Part shown: in pieces, positions 29,550-62,850 of the stretch | Layout of the letters: each line of letters starts with the position of its first letter | Numbering within the stretch: position 1 is the stretch's first letter | DNA from: a phage | Reading direction: 5' to 3' (one strand) | Length of the DNA: 64,000 bases | NCBI GenBank assembly: GCA_027337125.1 | Contig: GCA_027337125.1_3057.1 | Position numbers and translations under genes: made by a program | The notes under the pieces: generated by a model | Databases searched by the model: none | What the model saw: the letters and a program-made list of their open reading frames with translations, nothing else | What the model was told of the DNA's origin: nothing

Positions 29550-30376
29550 TGGCTATTTTTCAAATAATTAATGAAAGCACTCCCCAAGTTCCAAAGGTTA
29601 AGCAATCATTAAACGAAAAGAAATGGATTCAGATAGGTCTTGAATACAAAAAGGCCAAAGCAAAAGGAATGACAGGAAAGCAATTTGCTGAAGAAAGAGG
29701 AATCAAATACTCTACGTTTACTTCGGCAATGTCAAAATATGCTTCAGGAATTAAAACGGCTGAAAAGATTCAAAAGCTTGAATCAAAACCAATGAATAAA
29801 CTCAATAAGCAAGAAAGACAACTGCTTATGATAAATTCATTCAGACAAACATTGCGTGATAAAATTCGTAATGAAGGCGCAGCAATTAATAATAAAACCA
29901 GAAAGTGGTTTGCTGAAACTATTAAGCAAGTAAAAGGACATAAAGTTGTTCGCCCGCAGCCGGGACGAATATATGCTTTTGCTTACGATGCTAAACACAA
30001 AGAAACTCTTCCTTATTGGGATAAATTTCCTTTGATAATTTACCTTGGTTTAGGTAAACATAATTTAATGTATGGATTGAACTTGCACTATATTCCACCT
30101 AAAGCTCGTCAACAGTTTCTAGAAGAGCTTTTAAAGCAATATTCAAATACACCTACTATTACTAATAAAACGAAATTAAAAATTGATTGGAGTCAAGTGA
30201 AAGGATTTAGGGGTGCAGACCAAATGATTAAGGCATATATACCCGGTAATATTATGGGTAGCCTTGTTGAAATCGCCCCGAAAGACTGGGCGAACGTTGT
30301 GTTAATGCCACTCCAAAGCTTCTACTCCAAAGGAAAACGTTTCTCTGCAAACAAAGTTTGGAGCAATGTACGATGA
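29549..30376 (+). CDS. 2: DNA end protector protein gp2
   Basis: 275 aa; follows gene 4 with overlapping stop/start. Confidence 0.92.
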
Positions 30377-31032
30377 ATTATGAAAAAATTTATAATTCAC
30401 TAATTGATAGGGCTCGCAATAGAGCCCTTACTGGATATAAAGAAAGACATCATATTATTCCGAAATGTTTAGGCGGTAGTAATGATGCTTCTAACTTGGT
30501 TGATTTAACTCCAGAAGAGCATTATGTTGCACATCAGCTATTAGTAAAAATACACCCAAATTCTTTAAAATTATCTTATGCAGCCATAAAAATGACGGTT
30601 TCAACTAAATATGTTAGGAGAAATAATAAAGTTTATGGTTGGTTAAAAAGAAAACATGCAAATAATATTTCAAATACACAAACTGGACGAAAATATTATA
30701 ATAATGGTAAAAGATGTATAAAATTGCATGATGGAGATATAATTCCTGAGGGATTTATTTTAGGAAGAGGATGGAGTCCGACACAAGGAACAACTCATTC
30801 TAGAAAAAATGACACATTTAAAAACAAAAAGCTTCAATCTGCTTTAGCTAATAAACGGTGGGAAAAAGAAAAGAAAATAATGTTAGATAACTTTGGAGTT
30901 AACACTATTGATGAAGCAAAGAAAATTGTTCTTGATTTAAAATCAACTTGTCATCCAAGATATTGGCGAAAGCCAACTTTAGAAAAATTTCCATTTATGA
31001 CTTCTGCTCGTTTAAGAAGTCTAATAAATTAA
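30373..31032 (+). CDS. Mob-family HNH homing endonuclease (free-standing) between genes 2 and 3
   Basis: [14 protein letters not shown]...[34 protein letters not shown]; ATG overlaps the gene 2 TGA (ATGA). Confidence 0.85.
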
Positions 31033-47917: not shown

Positions 47918-48697
47918 ATGAATTATACTAAAGTATATAATAATTTAATTAAGAAAGGAAAACTCAGAAAATTAGATAAATCTAAATTAAATTTTTATAC
48001 GGAAAAGCATCATATTATTCCATCTTGTATTGGTGGTAATGATGATTCTGATAATCTAGTTTTATTAACAGCTAGAGAGCATTTTATAGCCCATTGGCTT
48101 TTAGCTAAAATTCATTATAATTCGCCTGGATTAATTTATGCATGGTGGTCATTTTATAATTTTGGAGAAGATTCTTTAGGAAGAAATCTCAAATTAACTT
48201 CAAGAGGATATCAGTTAGTTAGAGAAAAATTTTCAAAAATACATTCTAATACAATGAAAGAAATGTGGAAGTCTAATGAATACAGAGAAAAACGTTCGAT
48301 AACATTAAGTCTTCCTGAAATAAGGGCTAAAATTTCAGAATCCCAGTTAGAAGCACAAAACAAACCGGAAGTTAAAGAAAAAATATCTAAAGGGGTGAAA
48401 GCTGCTTTTAAACGACCGGGAGTTAAAGAAAAACACTCTGCTGCAGTCAAAAAATCTTTGAATAATTTTGAAACTAAAAAGAAACAATCAAATTCATCTA
48501 AAATTAGACAAAGAACTGGTAAACATTGGCAAGACTATGACTTACTTTATAAGTTATGGATTAAATTAAATAGACCTAAACGCGGGTCATTCGGAACTTA
48601 TATAAGTAAATTAGGATATCCAAAATCTAATTATCATCGATTGATTGTACAATTTAATGAAGATTATGAAAGGTCTAATAATGAAAACTGTAGTTAA
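47918..48697 (+). CDS. mobD: Mob-family HNH homing endonuclease
   Basis: MNYTKVYNNL...EKHHIIPSCIGGNDDSDNLVLLTAREHFIAHWLL plus repeated KPEVKEK modules; located between the rI block and the nrdC.x block as T4 mobD is. Confidence 0.85.
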   Translation: MNYTKVYNNLIKKGKLRKLDKSKLNFYTEKHHIIPSCIGGNDDSDNLVLLTAREHFIAHWLLAKIHYNSPGLIYAWWSFYNFGEDSLGRNLKLTSRGYQLVREKFSKIHSNTMKEMWKSNEYREKRSITLSLPEIRAKISESQLEAQNKPEVKEKISKGVKAAFKRPGVKEKHSAAVKKSLNNFETKKKQSNSSKIRQRTGKHWQDYDLLYKLWIKLNRPKRGSFGTYISKLGYPKSNYHRLIVQFNEDYERSNNENCS

Positions 48698-57320: not shown

Positions 57321-57704
57321 ATGATTGCAGTAGATAAGTGGTTTAGAATTAATCGTGCTGATATAGGGTTGTGTAATTACTGGCCGGAACTTAGTGCAGG
57401 TATTGTCTTTAAAGTTCGTGAACTTGTAAAAGAATGTGAAGATGACATAGAACCTGATATTGGAATTATTGAAATTGAACTTTCTGATGGAAAGATTATT
57501 AACATCTACGATAAGCCAATTACCTATTGGTGCTTGTGGAATACTGAATCAGTAGAAAATGGCGAAATTGAAGAAGTTGTAGAACGAGCTGATCAAGCTC
57601 TTCATAAACCTAAAGCCGCTTTTCAAGGTGAACGCATTTCATACGCATTAGCTAAATTAGCTGCACAAGAAAATAACGATGGTTATGAAGGAAATTTGAT
57701 GTAA
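57321..57704 (+). CDS. Hypothetical acidic protein
   Basis: Start set at Met 7 of the TTG-initiated track ORF, RBS GGAG; 127 aa. Confidence 0.6.
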   Translation: MIAVDKWFRINRADIGLCNYWPELSAGIVFKVRELVKECEDDIEPDIGIIEIELSDGKIINIYDKPITYWCLWNTESVENGEIEEVVERADQALHKPKAAFQGERISYALAKLAAQENNDGYEGNLM

Positions 57705-57816
57705 GCTGCGGCAGAATATATTGAATGGCTTGAAACTCAAATTTCTTTTTCTGACCGAGCGTTTTAATACTTGAAAATAATAAATACCCTTATCTATTCA
57801 AGGTAAGGGTTTTATT

Positions 57817-58290
57817 ATGTTATTGACTGGCAAATTATATAAAGAAGAAAAACAGAAATTTTATGATGCACAAAACGGTAAATGCTTAATTTGCCAACGA
57901 GAATTAAATCCTGATGTTCAAGCTAATCACCTTGACCATGACCATGAATTAAATGGACCGAAAGCTGGAAAGGTACGTGGGTTGCTTTGTAATCTCTGTA
58001 ATGCGGCAGAAGGTCAAATGAAACATAAATTTAATCGTTCTGGCTTAAAAGGACAAGGCGTTGATTATCTTGAATGGTTAGAAAATTTACTTACTTATTT
58101 AAAATCCGATTACACCCAAAATAATATTCACCCTAACTTTGTTGGAGATAAATCAAAGGAATTTTCTCGTTTAGGAAAAGAGGAAATGATGGCCGAGATG
58201 CTTCAAAGAGGATTTGAATATAATGAATCTGACACCAAAACACAGTTAATAGCTTCATTTAAGAAGCAGCTTAGAAAGAGTTTAAAATGA
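57817..58290 (+). CDS. 49: Endonuclease VII (Holliday junction resolvase) gp49
   Basis: 157 aa; MLLTGKLYKEEKQKFYDAQNGKCLICQRELNPDVQANHLDHDHELNGPKAG...; zinc-binding Cys plus H-N-H-like core. Confidence 0.95.
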   Translation: MLLTGKLYKEEKQKFYDAQNGKCLICQRELNPDVQANHLDHDHELNGPKAGKVRGLLCNLCNAAEGQMKHKFNRSGLKGQGVDYLEWLENLLTYLKSDYTQNNIHPNFVGDKSKEFSRLGKEEMMAEMLQRGFEYNESDTKTQLIASFKKQLRKSLK

Positions 58291-59108
58291 ATGTAGTATA
58301 TAAACTATCATTTGTTAATAGAATTAATGCTAAAACCCCGCCATATTATTACATTGGAAGTAAAACTAATTGCACTTTTGATGGAACGAATATTATTGAT
58401 AAAAATGGTAAATTTTATTATTCGTCTTCGTCATCTTCTGAATTTCAAAACGCTCTATTGAAAGAAACGCCGAAAGTTGAAATATTATATTTTCAATTAG
58501 TCGGAGATGAACAAATAACTAGCATTGAAGCTGAATTTCAAAAGAATGTAGAAAAAGATGTATGGAATAAAGAGTATTTTAATTTAGCATATGCTGATGG
58601 CCAATTTACGACATATGGTATTTCTCCTTCTAAAGAAACTAGAGAAAAGCAATCAATAACCATGATTAAAAGAAATCGTAATAAAGGCAAAAATCATGGA
58701 TTTTATGGAAAGCATCATACTAATTTAGCCAGAAAGAAAATATCAGAAGCTTCTAAAAAATACTGGAAAGAAAATCCACATCGTGGATTTTCGCATACAA
58801 AGGAAGCTAAAATTAAAATTGGAATTTCATCTTCTATCAGGCATAAAGGAAGTGGAAATCCGATGTATGGTGTAAAACCTTGGAAAACTCCGAGAGCAAT
58901 TAAATCTGGTACTTGTATATTATGGTTAAAATACGCAGAAATTTTATATGATTATTTAGGTCCAGATTTTAAAAGTAAATCATCTGTTTTTGTGGATTTA
59001 AACTTACCGAAATTTAGAATTGATAATTTCATCAAAAGGTTTAAAATGGGTTGGAACCCATATTTAGACGAAGAATTTCAAAAGGATAAATTAGAATTAT
59101 GTCTTTAG
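58287..59108 (+). CDS. GIY-YIG-type homing endonuclease (free-standing) between gene 49 and nrdD
   Basis: VYKLSFVNRINAKTPPYYYIGSK (GIY-YIG-like) plus C-terminal repeated basic modules (KGKNHGFYGKHHT, KGSGNPMYGVKPW); ATGA overlap with gene 49 and 10-nt overlap with nrdD. Confidence 0.75.
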   Translation: MNVVYKLSFVNRINAKTPPYYYIGSKTNCTFDGTNIIDKNGKFYYSSSSSSEFQNALLKETPKVEILYFQLVGDEQITSIEAEFQKNVEKDVWNKEYFNLAYADGQFTTYGISPSKETREKQSITMIKRNRNKGKNHGFYGKHHTNLARKKISEASKKYWKENPHRGFSHTKEAKIKIGISSSIRHKGSGNPMYGVKPWKTPRAIKSGTCILWLKYAEILYDYLGPDFKSKSSVFVDLNLPKFRIDNFIKRFKMGWNPYLDEEFQKDKLELCL

Positions 59109-60916
59109 AGAAAGATGTTTTAAATTTTATTTCAAATAAAGATAAAGAATTAAATACCGAAAATGCCAACAAAGATTCTCGTGTCTTTCCAACAAAAAGA
59201 GATTTAATGGCCGGTATTGTTTCTAAACATATCGCTTGTAGTATTCTTCCAAGCCATATTGTAAATGCTCATAATGCCGGGTTAATTCATTTTCATGATT
59301 TAGATTACAGTATATCATTGCCTTTTACTAATTGTTGTTTAGTAGATTTAAAAGGAATGCTTGAGAACGGATTTAAGCTTGGTAATGCACAGATTGAAAC
59401 TCCTAAATCAATCGGTGTTGCTACTGCAATTATGGCACAAATTACTGCACAGGTTGCTTCCCATCAATACGGCGGAACGACTTTTGCTAATGTAGATAAA
59501 GTACTTTCTCCTTATGTTAAACGCACCTATGCAAAACATATTGAGGATGCAGAAAAATGGCAAATCGCTGATGCGTTAAATTATGCTCAATCTAAAACAG
59601 AAAAAGACGTATACGATGCATTCCAAGCTTATGAATATGAAGTAAATACTCTCTTTAGTTCAAACGGACAAACGCCTTTTGTAACAATTACATTTGGTAC
59701 GGGAACTGACTGGACTGAACGAATGATTCAGAAAGCAATTCTGAAAAATCGTATTAAAGGTCTTGGTCGTGATGGGATAACTCCTATTTTCCCTAAGCTT
59801 GTTATGTTTGTTGAAGAAGGTGTTAATCTTTATAAAGACGATCCGAACTATGATATTAAGCAGCTTGCTTTAGAGTGTGCAAGCAAAAGGATGTATCCTG
59901 ATATTATTTCAGCTAAGAACAATAAAGCTATCACTGGTTCATCTGTTCCTGTTTCTCCAATGGGTTGTCGTAGTTTCTTGAGCATATGGAAAGATTCGAC
60001 TGGCAATGAAATTCTTGATGGACGTAATAATCTCGGTGTTGTAACACTGAATCTTCCTCGTATTGCGTTAGATTCTTATATTGGAACACAGTTCAATGAA
60101 CAGAAATTTACTGAATTATTCAATGAACGAATGGATTTGTGTTTTGAAGCTTTGATGTGTAGAATTAGTTCCTTAAAAGGAGTTAAAGCGACTGTTGCTC
60201 CTATTCTTTACCAAGAAGGCGCATTCGGGGTTCGTCTTAAACCTGATGACGACATAATTGAGTTATTTAAAAACGGTAGAAGTTCAGTGTCTTTAGGATA
60301 CATTGGTATTCACGAATTGAATATTCTTGTCGGTCGTGATATTGGACGAGAAATTTTAACTAAAATGAATGCTCATCTTAAACAGTGGACTGAAAGAACC
60401 GGATTTGCTTTTAGTTTATATTCGACTCCTGCTGAAAACCTTTGTTATCGCTTCTGTAAACTTGATACAGAGAAATATGGAAGTGTAAAAGATGTTACCG
60501 ATAAAGGCTGGTACACTAACAGTTTCCATGTTTCAGTAGAAGAAAATATTACTCCGTTTGAAAAGATTTCTCGTGAAGCTCCATATCATTTCATTGCGAC
60601 AGGTGGTCACATTTCTTATGTTGAACTTCCTGATATGAAAAATAACTTAAAAGGTCTTGAGGCCGTGTGGGATTATGCCGCACAACATTTAGATTATTTT
60701 GGTGTTAATATGCCAGTAGATAAATGTTTTACATGTGGAAGTACCCATGAAATGACTCCTACTGAAAACGGATTTGTTTGTTCTATTTGCGGAGAAACTG
60801 ATCCTAAAAAGATGAACACAATAAGAAGAACGTGTGGTTATTTGGGAAATCCGAACGAACGCGGATTTAATCTCGGTAAAAATAAAGAAATCATGCATAG
60901 GGTTAAACACCAATGA
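59099..60916 (+). CDS. nrdD: Anaerobic ribonucleoside-triphosphate reductase NrdD (glycyl radical enzyme)
   Basis: 605 aa uninterrupted; C-terminal zinc ribbon CFTCGS...CSICGE and glycyl radical motif RRTCGYLG. Confidence 0.95.
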   Translation: MSLEKDVLNFISNKDKELNTENANKDSRVFPTKRDLMAGIVSKHIACSILPSHIVNAHNAGLIHFHDLDYSISLPFTNCCLVDLKGMLENGFKLGNAQIETPKSIGVATAIMAQITAQVASHQYGGTTFANVDKVLSPYVKRTYAKHIEDAEKWQIADALNYAQSKTEKDVYDAFQAYEYEVNTLFSSNGQTPFVTITFGTGTDWTERMIQKAILKNRIKGLGRDGITPIFPKLVMFVEEGVNLYKDDPNYDIKQLALECASKRMYPDIISAKNNKAITGSSVPVSPMGCRSFLSIWKDSTGNEILDGRNNLGVVTLNLPRIALDSYIGTQFNEQKFTELFNERMDLCFEALMCRISSLKGVKATVAPILYQEGAFGVRLKPDDDIIELFKNGRSSVSLGYIGIHELNILVGRDIGREILTKMNAHLKQWTERTGFAFSLYSTPAENLCYRFCKLDTEKYGSVKDVTDKGWYTNSFHVSVEENITPFEKISREAPYHFIATGGHISYVELPDMKNNLKGLEAVWDYAAQHLDYFGVNMPVDKCFTCGSTHEMTPTENGFVCSICGETDPKKMNTIRRTCGYLGNPNERGFNLGKNKEIMHRVKHQ

Positions 60917-61752
60917 ATTATGATAGATTTTATCCTTGCGATTTTGTGAATGATAAATTATCTTTAATATTTGAAGAAAATAATGATTTACTATTGTCAT
61001 ATGTTGATTTGATAACAAAAAATTATAATAATCCTAAAATAAAAGGAAAAACGGAAGCACATCACGTGCTTCCCAAATCTATATTTCCTGAATATAAAAC
61101 AGATAAATGGAATATTGTTAATTTGTCATATTATGACCACGCGTTAGCTCATTACTATTTAGCTAAAACAAGTAATAGTAAAATGTGTTATGCCTTTCAT
61201 AGAATGATAAACTCGAATACCGATAGATTTAATACAAATGAATTGGATGAAATTCTTAAATTGTATTCCAGCGAAAAGGAATTATTTCACCGCTCTATGT
61301 CAAAATTATCGAAAAATATATGGAAGGATGACGATTTTAGAAAAAGACATAGAGAACTAACTAAGTTAGCAATGCAAAAACCTGAAGTTAGAAATAAAAC
61401 TTTATTAAATTTGTCAAATGCAATGAAAACTGATGAAGTTAGAAATAAAATTTCCAGGCTAACTAAGTTAGCAATGCAAAAACCTGAAGTAAAAGAAAAA
61501 CATAGAAATTCATTGAAGTTGGCGTATGCAAATCCTGAGGTTATGAAAAGGAAACATCAGCGTCTTCGAGAAAAATATACTCTTAATTTATTTGGCGCAT
61601 ATAAAGATGGTGTTCTTTTAAAAACATTTAATTATATACCAGACGCAGCAAAATATTTTAATATTTCTAGCAAAGGAAATATTTTAAAATGTTTAAATGG
61701 CGAACGTAAAAGTGTTGAAGGCTATAATTGGAAATATATAAATGAATTATGA
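60913..61752 (+). CDS. mobC: Mob-family HNH homing endonuclease between nrdD and nrdG
   Basis: HNH core TEAHHVLPKS...NLSYYDHALAHYYL; N-terminus MNYDRFYPCDFVND copies the nrdG start; internal 32-bp perfect direct repeat. Confidence 0.85.
   Translation: MNYDRFYPCDFVNDKLSLIFEENNDLLLSYVDLITKNYNNPKIKGKTEAHHVLPKSIFPEYKTDKWNIVNLSYYDHALAHYYLAKTSNSKMCYAFHRMINSNTDRFNTNELDEILKLYSSEKELFHRSMSKLSKNIWKDDDFRKRHRELTKLAMQKPEVRNKTLLNLSNAMKTDEVRNKISRLTKLAMQKPEVKEKHRNSLKLAYANPEVMKRKHQRLREKYTLNLFGAYKDGVLLKTFNYIPDAAKYFNISSKGNILKCLNGERKSVEGYNWKYINEL
61357..61490 (+). repeat. Perfect 32-bp direct repeat (two copies, 102 bp apart, in frame) inside mobC
   Basis: ctaactaagttagcaatgcaaaaacctgaagt at 61357-61388 and 61459-61490, each encoding LTKLAMQKPEV. 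Confidence 0.85.
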
Positions 61753-62212
61753 CAGAATATACCCGTGCTGCTTCGTGAATGGCCCTGGATGCAGGACCGT
61801 TCTTTTCGTTACAGGTTGTTTGCATAAATGTGAAGGGTGTTATAATAAATCAACATGGAATGCTAGAAATGGTATTCCATTCACTGGTGAAACACTAGAA
61901 CAATTGATTGAATGTTTGAATAATGATTATATAGAAGGATTAACTATAACCGGAGGTGACCCTCTTTATCCTGATAACAGAGACGTGATTCACTCTGTGG
62001 TTCAAACTATTAAAAATCTTTATCCCAATAAAAGCATTTGGTTGTGGACAGGATATAAGTTTGAAGATATTAAACAACTAGAAATGCTTAAATATGTTGA
62101 TGTTATTATTGATGGGAAGTATGAGAAAAATCTTCCGACCAAAAAGCTGTGGCGAGGTTCAGATAATCAGCGACTTTGGTCAAATACCGATGGGGTGTGG
62201 AAACATGATTAA
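61742..62212 (+). CDS. nrdG: Anaerobic ribonucleotide reductase activating protein NrdG (radical SAM)
   Basis: MNYDRIYPCCFVNGPGCRTVLFVTGCLHKCEGCYNKSTW: NrdG N-terminal signature and CxxxCxxC cluster. Confidence 0.93.
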   Translation: MNYDRIYPCCFVNGPGCRTVLFVTGCLHKCEGCYNKSTWNARNGIPFTGETLEQLIECLNNDYIEGLTITGGDPLYPDNRDVIHSVVQTIKNLYPNKSIWLWTGYKFEDIKQLEMLKYVDVIIDGKYEKNLPTKKLWRGSDNQRLWSNTDGVWKHD

Positions 62213-62326
62213 ATTGAATTATATTATGGACACTATAAATGATATGATTTTTCATTTTGGTCCAGAATTTTATTCGCAATATAGTTTAGTGCTTATCAAT
62301 GCTTGGTTAATCAATTAAGGGTAAAT

Positions 62327-62539
62327 ATGTATAAATTTCGTAAAGGTTTAGCTGATTTTCTTACAACCGTAACGTTCTTTTTGTTTATGGCAGTTGGTGC
62401 TATTTTTCTTATTCCTTTTATTGCTATATTTTTCGTGATTAGTTTGATTTCTCCAGAAAAAGGACTGTCTTCTAGCGAATTCAATGAGCGTCTGGATAAA
62501 ATTACTAACAAGCTGAATGCTGCTCTTAGTAAGGAATAG
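62327..62539 (+). CDS. Small membrane protein
   Basis: Start set at Met 9 of the track ORF; FLTTVTFFLFMAVGAIFLIPFIAIFFVISLI hydrophobic core. Confidence 0.55.
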   Translation: MYKFRKGLADFLTTVTFFLFMAVGAIFLIPFIAIFFVISLISPEKGLSSSEFNERLDKITNKLNAALSKE

Positions 62540-62541
62540 TT

Positions 62542-62850
62542 GTGAAACAAAACAAGATTGAAGTCTATGGAATTCCAGATGAAGTAGGTCGTTGTCCTGG
62601 ATGTCAATCAGTTACAAAACTTCTAAAGGAGCTCAATGCTCCTTTTACTTTCTATAAAGTTCTTACAAATAATGGTAAGATTGAGTATGATCGTCCACTG
62701 ATTGTATCTCTTGCTAAACGAGCTGGATTCACATCTCTTAACATTCGTTATCCAGTCATTTTCATCAATGATTCTAGACAAAAGAACATTAAACACTTCA
62801 AAGAAACTCTCATTTCACTTGGATATGATAGAGATATCATAGAAGACTAA
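62542..62850 (+). CDS. Thioredoxin-fold redoxin (NrdH/glutaredoxin-like, CPGC motif)
   Basis: 102 aa, GTG start with AAGGA RBS; VYGIPDEVGRCPGCQS; directly downstream of nrdG. Confidence 0.7.
   Translation: MKQNKIEVYGIPDEVGRCPGCQSVTKLLKELNAPFTFYKVLTNNGKIEYDRPLIVSLAKRAGFTSLNIRYPVIFINDSRQKNIKHFKETLISLGYDRDIIED

Follow-up and report, generated by a model that had tools for sequence, protein, structure and literature searches.

A probable HNH homing endonuclease cassette that is read from the nrdG start codon and carries a re-coded nrdG 5′ end in T4-like phages

In T-even phages, homing endonuclease genes of the free-standing kind are usually described as intergenic, and those that are intragenic as splitting their host gene (PMC2988022). 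Described examples are mobE in nrdA of the Aeromonas phage Aeh1 and mobA in the T4 topoisomerase gene (39/60), where a Mob gene lies inside a conserved gene of nucleotide metabolism or replication and the host is left in two pieces whose products must reassemble (PMC2988022; bioRxiv 10.1101/2022.08.31.505936). A survey of phage reductase genes reported no interrupted nrdG (PMC3653736). Here we describe a Mob-type HNH endonuclease gene at the junction of nrdD and nrdG in a 64,000-nucleotide stretch of phage DNA (GenBank assembly GCA_027337125.1, contig GCA_027337125.1_3057.1), referred to as the window, which comes from a T4-like phage of the genus Tequatrovirus whose nearest records are approximately 98% identical. 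Like mobE and mobA it lies within a conserved gene, but nrdG is whole and its displaced 5′ piece forms the start of the endonuclease. We consider it likely that a free-standing HNH cassette of 829 base pairs (bp) was inserted between nucleotides (nt) 40 and 41 of nrdG, that it is read from the nrdG start and that nrdG was rebuilt by a copy of its 5′ end carried by the cassette.

The endonuclease gene sits at the locus occupied by mobC in T4, and in RB3, T6 and other phages mobC is reportedly replaced by SegH, a free-standing homing endonuclease of the GIY-YIG type. Organellar group I intron endonuclease open reading frames (ORFs) can be fused in frame to the upstream exon and use the initiation signals of the host gene; the cassette resembles them in that the endonuclease is read in frame from host codons. 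It differs in having no intron or ribozyme (an Rfam search at E ≤ 1 over positions 57500-62600 found no group I or II intron or ribozyme and one chance-level small RNA match) and in that the host is restored by DNA duplication and not by RNA splicing. A mobile ORF at atp6 of Allomyces has reportedly been described. In fungal mitochondria, for example those of Endoconidiophora resinifera, endonuclease ORFs are found with partial C-terminal duplications of atp6 and cob (PMC6279837), so that an intact gene stands beside a displaced fragment as it does here, but these cases concern the 3′ end, other nuclease families and organelles, and the displaced fragment is a piece of pseudogene and not a translation start. 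A partial literature search found no prior description of the present phage arrangement, which is no proof of novelty, and the cassette is a variant of intronless homing, which is known biology, and not a new kind of system.

The insertion between nucleotides 40 and 41 of nrdG

The endonuclease ORF (60913-61752, + strand, 279 amino acids (aa), beginning MNYDRFYPCDFVND) was recognised from the ORF list, from phrog matches and from its ratio of non-synonymous to synonymous substitution rates (dN/dS), and is followed by nrdG (61742-62212, + strand, the anaerobic ribonucleotide reductase activase gene, 156 aa, beginning MNYDRIYPCCFVNG). The two genes start with direct repeats, as 60913-60952 and 61742-61781 are identical at 31 of 40 nt (78%) and at 11 of 14 residues, with a spacing of 829 bp. 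The shared stretch ends at nt 40, as nt 41 is A in one sequence and G in the other; with the preceding A counted, the repeat search gave 41 nt at 78%. All nine differences fall in nt 12-33, so that the ends, ATGAATTATGA and GTGAATG, are perfect. Chance is excluded for this match by a binomial probability of 1.6e-10 for at least 31 identities in 41 at the base composition of the window, and by the first rank of the pair when the opening 41 nt of 81 window ORFs were compared two by two (3,240 comparisons, mean 14.3, standard deviation 3.0). The initial annotation, which had the first 14 codons of the HNH ORF mirroring the nrdG start at about 80% (strings at 60913-60953 and 61742-61782), was accurate in this.

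What the locus looks like when unoccupied is seen in 558 of 50,697 phage records in which nrdD is directly followed by nrdG, which we call empty-site records. In these the ATG of nrdG overlaps the nrdD stop (ATGA), and they match both flanks of the window locus across a gap of exactly 829 bp (a query of 1801 nt spans 972 nt). The first 40 nt of nrdG in the empty-site phage CrRp10 are identical (40/40) to 60913-60952 of the window and the two sequences part at nt 41, where nrdG reads GGC and the HNH ORF reads GAT; because the identity is complete and ends there, the start codon and first 13 codons of the HNH ORF are those of the resident nrdG, and the insertion point lies between nt 40 and 41, inside codon 14. 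A tblastn search of IMG/VR with the endonuclease returned eight matches, of which seven were empty-site nrdG starts aligned over residues 1-13 only, at 100%; this search found no further copies of the endonuclease, and the eighth match was weak (residues 128-197). The presence or absence of the insert at one precise site can thus be followed through 32 carrier and 558 empty-site records, with the same junction in two genera.

That both Mob and NrdG proteins simply start MNY..IY and that the rest of the match arose by chance is an explanation to which we give almost no credence. Mob proteins do have M[N/D]Yxx[I/H]Y as their consensus start, and NrdG has MN[Y/F]DRIY as its conserved start, but the probability is about 1e-10, the match to empty-site nrdG alleles is 40/40 nt with an abrupt end, and the YPC-FVN segment of the endonuclease is absent from the other family members examined. 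Coincidence is refuted for residues 8-13, and is a fair description only of the first seven residues of canonical Mob proteins.

The 829-bp unit was found at nt 40/41 of nrdG in 32 records from two genera, Tequatrovirus and the Klebsiella phages of Jiaodavirus, the latter having a different local nrdG start (MNFDRIYPSDFVNG) and an extra 72-aa ORF between nrdD and nrdG. In the empty-site Klebsiella phage KP1079, nrdG begins ATGAATTTCGACAGAATCTACCCTTCTGACTTTGTGAATG and continues with G, while in the Klebsiella carrier Mexia the endonuclease begins with the same 40 nt as KP1079 nrdG and continues with ATAAGC, and the nrdG downstream of the endonuclease begins MNYDRIYPCCFVNG, as in the window. The same design was seen in all seven carrier genomes that were read base by base. 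The upstream copy tracks the local allele, its polymorphisms being those segregating in local empty-site nrdG, and the downstream copy is of cassette type, encoding MNYDRIYPCCFVN in all seven genomes of both genera. Between the window and Mexia the downstream copies differ at seven positions, all synonymous, whereas three residues differ between the cassette peptide and the Klebsiella local allele. The right junction is present in 32 of 32 carrier records, at least 91% identical over 140 nt.

Because the downstream peptide is the same in both genera and the upstream copy is the local allele, the mobile unit is taken to be the endonuclease body together with the re-coded 5′ segment of nrdG (60953-61781, + strand, 829 bp), a cassette without a start codon of its own whose boundaries can slide within the 7-nt GTGAATG common to both copies. 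The upstream copy (60913-60952, + strand; the resident nrdG start codon with 13 codons and 1 nt, now codons 1-13 of the endonuclease ORF) would then be what the recipient already had. The downstream copy (61742-61781, + strand) is the re-coded 40-nt beginning of the functional nrdG and is borne by the cassette. When carriers are compared with local empty-site nrdG, there are 9-11 differences in the first 40 nt and 5-22 in the remaining 431, a concentration with Fisher p values of 1e-5 to 1e-8 in both genera. Across the two genera identity is 85% for the endonuclease body and 68-70% for the adjacent nrdG, and we count this greater likeness of the endonuclease as a sequence-based indication of horizontal transfer.

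A local tandem duplication, with the first 40 nt of nrdG duplicated in place at or before the landing of the endonuclease and the downstream copy diverging in each lineage, would account for direct repeats that flank the insert with perfect ends, and target-site duplications are common for mobile DNA generally. We judge it very improbable, as the Klebsiella downstream copy (MNYDRIYPCC) does not derive from the local allele (MNFDRIYPSD), from which it differs at 11 of 40 nt, but matches the Tequatrovirus cassette peptide with synonymous differences only, and the same 40 nt occur after SegH and in phage U5. The initial annotation's proposal that an endonuclease gene was inserted into the 5′ end of nrdG agrees with the site seen in CrRp10 and the other empty-site records, and with the aligned nrdD-nrdG junctions of Tequatrovirus and Klebsiella phages with and without the endonuclease gene. 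Its suggestion that the gene borrowed the nrdG translation start is supported by the fusion of the ORF to the nrdG ATG and the complete identity with CrRp10, which are consistent with such use. Its third element, that the target region was duplicated to restore nrdG, holds in so far as nrdG is intact, but the second copy came with the cassette and is not a local duplication that drifted.

The three genes of the locus overlap in turn. The nrdD gene (59099-60916, + strand) encodes the anaerobic ribonucleotide reductase large subunit as an uninterrupted ORF of 605 aa (from the ORF list and annotated as nrdD in matching phage records), and its TGA stop overlaps the ATG at 60913 as ATGA. At the other end an 11-nt overlap, ATGAATTATGA (61742-61752, + strand), contains the nrdG start codon and, in the other frame, the last endonuclease codons and their TGA stop, which falls in nrdG codons 3-4; an 11-nt stop/start overlap is also found at the mobC/nrdG junction of T4. 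In Klebsiella phage KP01 (approximately 1165-1175) a 2-nt TA insertion makes the endonuclease end at a TAA immediately before the nrdG ATG, and the element can thus do without the 11-nt overlap. The record of phage UTI-K1 (345-1181) gives the endonuclease as a second 'activating protein', a label presumably prompted by the NrdG-derived start.

The window NrdG matches Fer4_12 (E 1.4e-48) and Radical_SAM (E 1.2e-7) in Pfam and aligns over its full length with NrdG of other phages. A place for nrdG in the 'genes-in-pieces' class was ruled out, since the 156-aa protein downstream of the cassette is collinear with empty-site NrdG from residue 1 over its full length. The endonuclease ORF is separate from NrdG and not in frame with it, and so is not embedded in it as an intein would be.

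The re-coded nrdG allele and a proposed route of homing

Residue D10 and the MN[Y/F]DRIY start of NrdG are invariant in 28 nrdG loci from IMG/VR, down to 54% protein identity. In the cassette copy residue 10 is cysteine, through a three-base change from GAT to TGC (D10C). This re-coded CC allele was found in 32 of 32 carriers, in about 60 of the 71 SegH-carrying records and in one phage with a T4-type mobC (BEU50), compared with 2 of the 558 empty-site records (U5 and ESh24), and is thus tightly linked to occupancy of the nrdD/nrdG junction by an endonuclease gene. The identical 40-nt CC allele follows SegH in RB9 and is present in U5 (AY262145, 661-700). As the same 40 nt occur in these phages and the cassette peptide occurs in both genera, the nrdG 5′ copy both circulates as an allele and moves with the cassette. 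U5 and ESh24 may have lost the cassette precisely, through a deletion between the AATGAATTATGA repeats that left the re-coded allele as a scar.

Drawing on known T-even intronless homing and on the characterised Mob enzymes, which nick their targets (PMC2988022), the following scheme can be put forward. The cassette lacks an initiation codon of its own, and since its frame is fused to the resident nrdG start the enzyme would be made from the nrdG initiation site with the first 13 residues of NrdG as its N-terminus. At its 3′ end the cassette brings a new initiation region followed by nt 1-40 of nrdG in re-coded form, and because this segment is carried nrdG is rebuilt intact and not split. The enzyme would nick or cut D-type nrdG of an empty site near nt 40, and recombinational repair would copy the cassette in, the insertion itself separating the two halves of the target site. 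The nine changes in nt 12-33, including D10C, may protect the rebuilt nrdG from cutting and may also block recombination between the two copies and hence deletion of the cassette. Translation could run from nrdD to the endonuclease to nrdG by termination-reinitiation. The unit may go back to an illegitimate joining event, in which the end of a broken nrdG was linked to an endonuclease gene that already lay upstream of a resistant allele of nrdG.

A number of points weigh against this scheme. Neither a Shine-Dalgarno-like signal nor an RNA structure by which coupling would be enforced was found; the two start regions and the empty-site junction folded no better than shuffled sequences (z -0.1 to +1.8), and in a scan of 58900-62600 sigma-70 promoters and terminators were just as numerous as shuffling predicts. 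Free-standing T4 endonucleases often cut hundreds of bp away from their own gene (PMC2988022), and a cleavage site at the insertion point is therefore not guaranteed. The CC allele is not private to the cassette, as it also follows SegH and the mobC of BEU50, and its counts come from related genomes that are not phylogenetically independent. U5 and ESh24 may carry ancestral resistant alleles rather than the products of cassette loss, and the flanks of ESh24 are no closer to those of the carrier ESh25 than to those of other phages, so the pair is not near-isogenic. In the endonuclease itself the Pfam HNH model gave no match at E ≤ 0.01 and the NUMOD models remained below their cut-offs.

A stronger proposal could be right, although we doubt it: that the element is obligately start-less and expressed only after an in-frame landing, that translation of NrdG depends on the endonuclease, that nt 12-33 (22 nt) mark the recognition sequence and that the target of T4 MobC is likewise the 5′ end of nrdG. 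For T4 mobC the literature gives the target gene as unknown (PMC2988022). If this proposal were true, nonsense decay of the endonuclease would be polar on nrdG, and the arrangement would act as an addiction-like retention device.

The endonuclease and its relatives

The endonuclease matches phrog_655 ('homing endonuclease', E 3e-36) and phrog_12434 ('HNH endonuclease', E 5e-15). Its HNH catalytic core (61054-61152, + strand, codons 48-80, EAHHVLP...NIVNL...HALAH) contains residues E48, H50, H51, P54, N67, H76, A79 and H80, which are invariant in alignments with the Mob paralogues of the window, T4 MobC and paralogues from T6 and DK-13. A repeat search revealed internal direct repeats (61357-61504, + strand; 51 nt three times and 102 nt twice) that encode LAMQKPEV(R/K) units. 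At the C-terminus a possible NUMOD-like helix-turn-helix, a presumed DNA-binding module (61621-61728, + strand), is suggested by sub-cut-off Pfam matches over residues 235-272 (PF22083, 21.1 bits, cut-off 27, E 2e-4; PF07453, 17.4 bits, cut-off 22.8, E 5e-3) and by its last 45 nt or so, which resemble the 3′ end of T4 mobC in an alignment. Phrog_7140 and phrog_314 weakly match residues 161-278, and a sequence search of the PDB found nothing meaningful (E 0.31).

Between the window and Mexia the endonuclease copies have a dN/dS of 0.08, which indicates purifying selection, and a linker indel between the genera (codons 14-27) is in frame, with the substitutions there mostly synonymous or conservative. 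Together these point to a translated and selected protein, and the endonuclease looks functional.

The closest paralogues are a T6 gene between 46.x and 46 (34-36% identity) and a DK-13 gene (44%). Both share GKTEAHHVLPKSIFPE with the endonuclease and have N-terminal extensions of their own, of approximately 28 aa and unrelated to NrdG. Residues 14-27 of the endonuclease align with this native extension and with positions 2-26 of phrog_655, from which it appears that the 13 residues of NrdG replaced some 13-14 native ones. The T6 paralogue (T6 locus 1370-2224) lies between a DUF5487 gene and the SbcC-like gene 46 in T2, T6, RB51 and many others, and its HNH core is about 74% identical to that of the window endonuclease at the nucleotide level. 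Five more distant relatives (P0004-P0008) have unrelated N-termini without YPC-FVN and stand in other contexts; the nearest non-orthologous one, P0004, is located between an 81-aa ORF and a Rv2179c-like exonuclease gene, not near nrdG. A metagenomic variant, P0003, is 242 aa long compared to 279 (37 shorter), ends ...WKYI without the last three residues and lacks a 34-aa repeat unit; as this gap equals the 102-nt repeat spacing, it suggests a repeat-mediated, in-frame deletion in the presumed DNA-binding region.

The endonuclease might instead start internally (for example at the TTG of codon 28), leaving the nrdG-derived codons as an untranslated or functionless remnant. There is no ATG between codon 1 and codon 91, but TTG (codon 28) and GTG (codon 12) are present, and canonical Mob proteins begin about where codons 27-28 align. 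Against this, the frame is open from the nrdG ATG (predicted N-terminal peptide in the window, MNYDRFYPCDFVNDK...) in every carrier genome read in both genera, and codons 14-27 show the in-frame indel, the mostly synonymous or conservative changes and the alignment to the T6/DK-13 extension and phrog_655 described above, so that we give an internal start only a slim chance.

The three other Mob paralogues in the window (30373-31032, + strand; 47918-48697, + strand; 12461-11649, - strand) start MNYEKIY, MNYTKVY and MNYTKIY. The initial annotation was right that all of them lack YPC-FVN, but the MNYxKIY start it gave them does not fit one, which has V at position 6. Among 2,931 homologues detected for the Mob family, N-termini were taken from the 120 listed, of which 118 are Met-initiated; about 109 of these 118 share the consensus M[N/D]Yxx[I/H]YxxLIxRAxxR and none of the 118 has the YPC-FVN segment. 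The segment is therefore not a general Mob feature among the homologues listed; its general occurrence in the family had been named as a finding that would count against an insertion footprint. As the consensus is widespread, with YPC/FVN in none of those listed, there is no support for the further suggestion of an nrdG origin for the MNY-IY start throughout the Mob proteins; the consensus is family-wide and MN[Y/F]DRIY is also old in NrdG.

The name mobC, used for this ORF by the initial annotation and in some GenBank records, should not be read as a sign of orthology. An orthologue of T4 mobC was considered and rejected, as BLASTP against T4 MobC aligns the HNH core only (E 1e-7, 23/60 identities, 38% over 60 aa) and T4 matches the window in the flanks only (56% coverage). 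The T4 gene resembles the window gene in its locus, in its ATGA overlap with the nrdD stop and in the 11-nt overlap of its stop with the nrdG start, and the two proteins have related C-terminal ends (...GY.WKY..EL*) besides the HNH core. It differs in that MobC has 210 aa compared to 279, a canonical Mob N-terminus and no 26-aa extension, in that the body of mobC has no nucleotide match to the window ORF and only 21 nt in common with nrdG, and in that T4 nrdG keeps D10. T4 mobC starts ATGAATTATGACAGAATCTAT (MNYDRIY), 19/21 identical to the T4 nrdG start (T4 locus record 714-734 and 1336-1356). Residues D4-R5 of T4 MobC match NrdG, D4 being found in 0 of 106 family members, and empty-site nrdG matches T4 mobC through exactly nt 21. 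From the NrdG-like D4 and this match, T4 mobC probably carries a shorter nrdG footprint of the same kind.

These relatives bear on another possible history, in which an intergenic endonuclease gene with its own Mob-like start later had its first 13 or so codons overwritten by homologous or microhomology-mediated exchange with an empty-site nrdG, nt 40/41 being the recombination scar. The native extension of the paralogues is of similar length, with its first 14 residues faintly NrdG-like (T6: MKNFKLDINDEFLI), the 21 nt that T4 mobC shares with nrdG fall at a Mob/NrdG microhomology, and the three cassettes found at the junction have their last 16 nt or so before the nrdG ATG in common. However, the presumed ancestral form was not found in the 32 carrier records, in IMG/VR or in the protein database, and the junction is at the same nucleotide in two genera despite a different upstream context (the 72-aa ORF in Klebsiella phages), and therefore fits transfer of an already-fused unit. 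We think such a replacement unlikely, if worth keeping in mind; it concerns origin only and predicts the same present-day element.

Neighbouring endonuclease genes and implications

SegH is found at the same nrdD/nrdG junction in 71 records and, like the cassette, is usually followed by a re-coded CC nrdG, with a similar stretch of approximately 16 nt before its ATG. Unlike the cassette, it belongs to an unrelated nuclease family and starts in a re-coded 3′ end of nrdD, without nrdG codons or duplication of nrdG. In the SegH phages RB9, HY03 and FL18 about the last 12 nrdD codons are re-coded (KMKEMVKRVKHA instead of KNKEIMHRVKHQ) and the GIY-YIG motif starts from an ATG that shares bases with the stop of nrdD (ATGCATAG); by this start, several records annotate SegH too short or as 'segD', and the nrdG of RB9 is annotated as truncated. 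The stretch before the nrdG ATG (TTGGA[A/T]AT...) is alike in the window HNH gene (61726-61741), T4 mobC (1320-1335) and SegH of RB9 (1521-1536), and may represent either a 3′ junction inherited by all three or an initiation region for nrdG that they have in common.

Upstream in the window a second free-standing endonuclease gene (58287-59108) lies between gene 49 and nrdD; it is seg-like, encodes 273 aa with NUMOD3 and a YYYIGS motif, and is present in 49 of approximately 702 records. In T4_ev151, which is without it, the nrdD ATG lies in an ATGA overlap with the gene 49 stop, while in the window the ATG of the seg-like ORF takes that ATGA. The first 240 nt or so of the window nrdD (59099-59340) are about 65% identical to the nrdD of T4_ev151, after which identity is about 100%, and this sharply bounded 5′ tract of nrdD appears to have been re-coded or co-converted, without duplication.

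For the biology of these phages, the cassette would represent a third outcome of homing besides an intergenic seat and the splitting of a gene, in that the start and 13 codons of the target are taken over and the damage is repaired with a carried, re-coded copy. It yields a precise prediction of where an uncharacterised Mob-type enzyme recognises its target, and this prediction extends to T4 MobC. The arrangement explains annotation errors such as endonucleases labelled as NrdG activase and truncated nrdG calls. It also offers a natural allelic series, consisting of D-type nrdG (predicted to be sensitive), CC nrdG with the cassette and CC nrdG without it, in which homing may have driven recoding that includes a non-synonymous change at an otherwise invariant residue.

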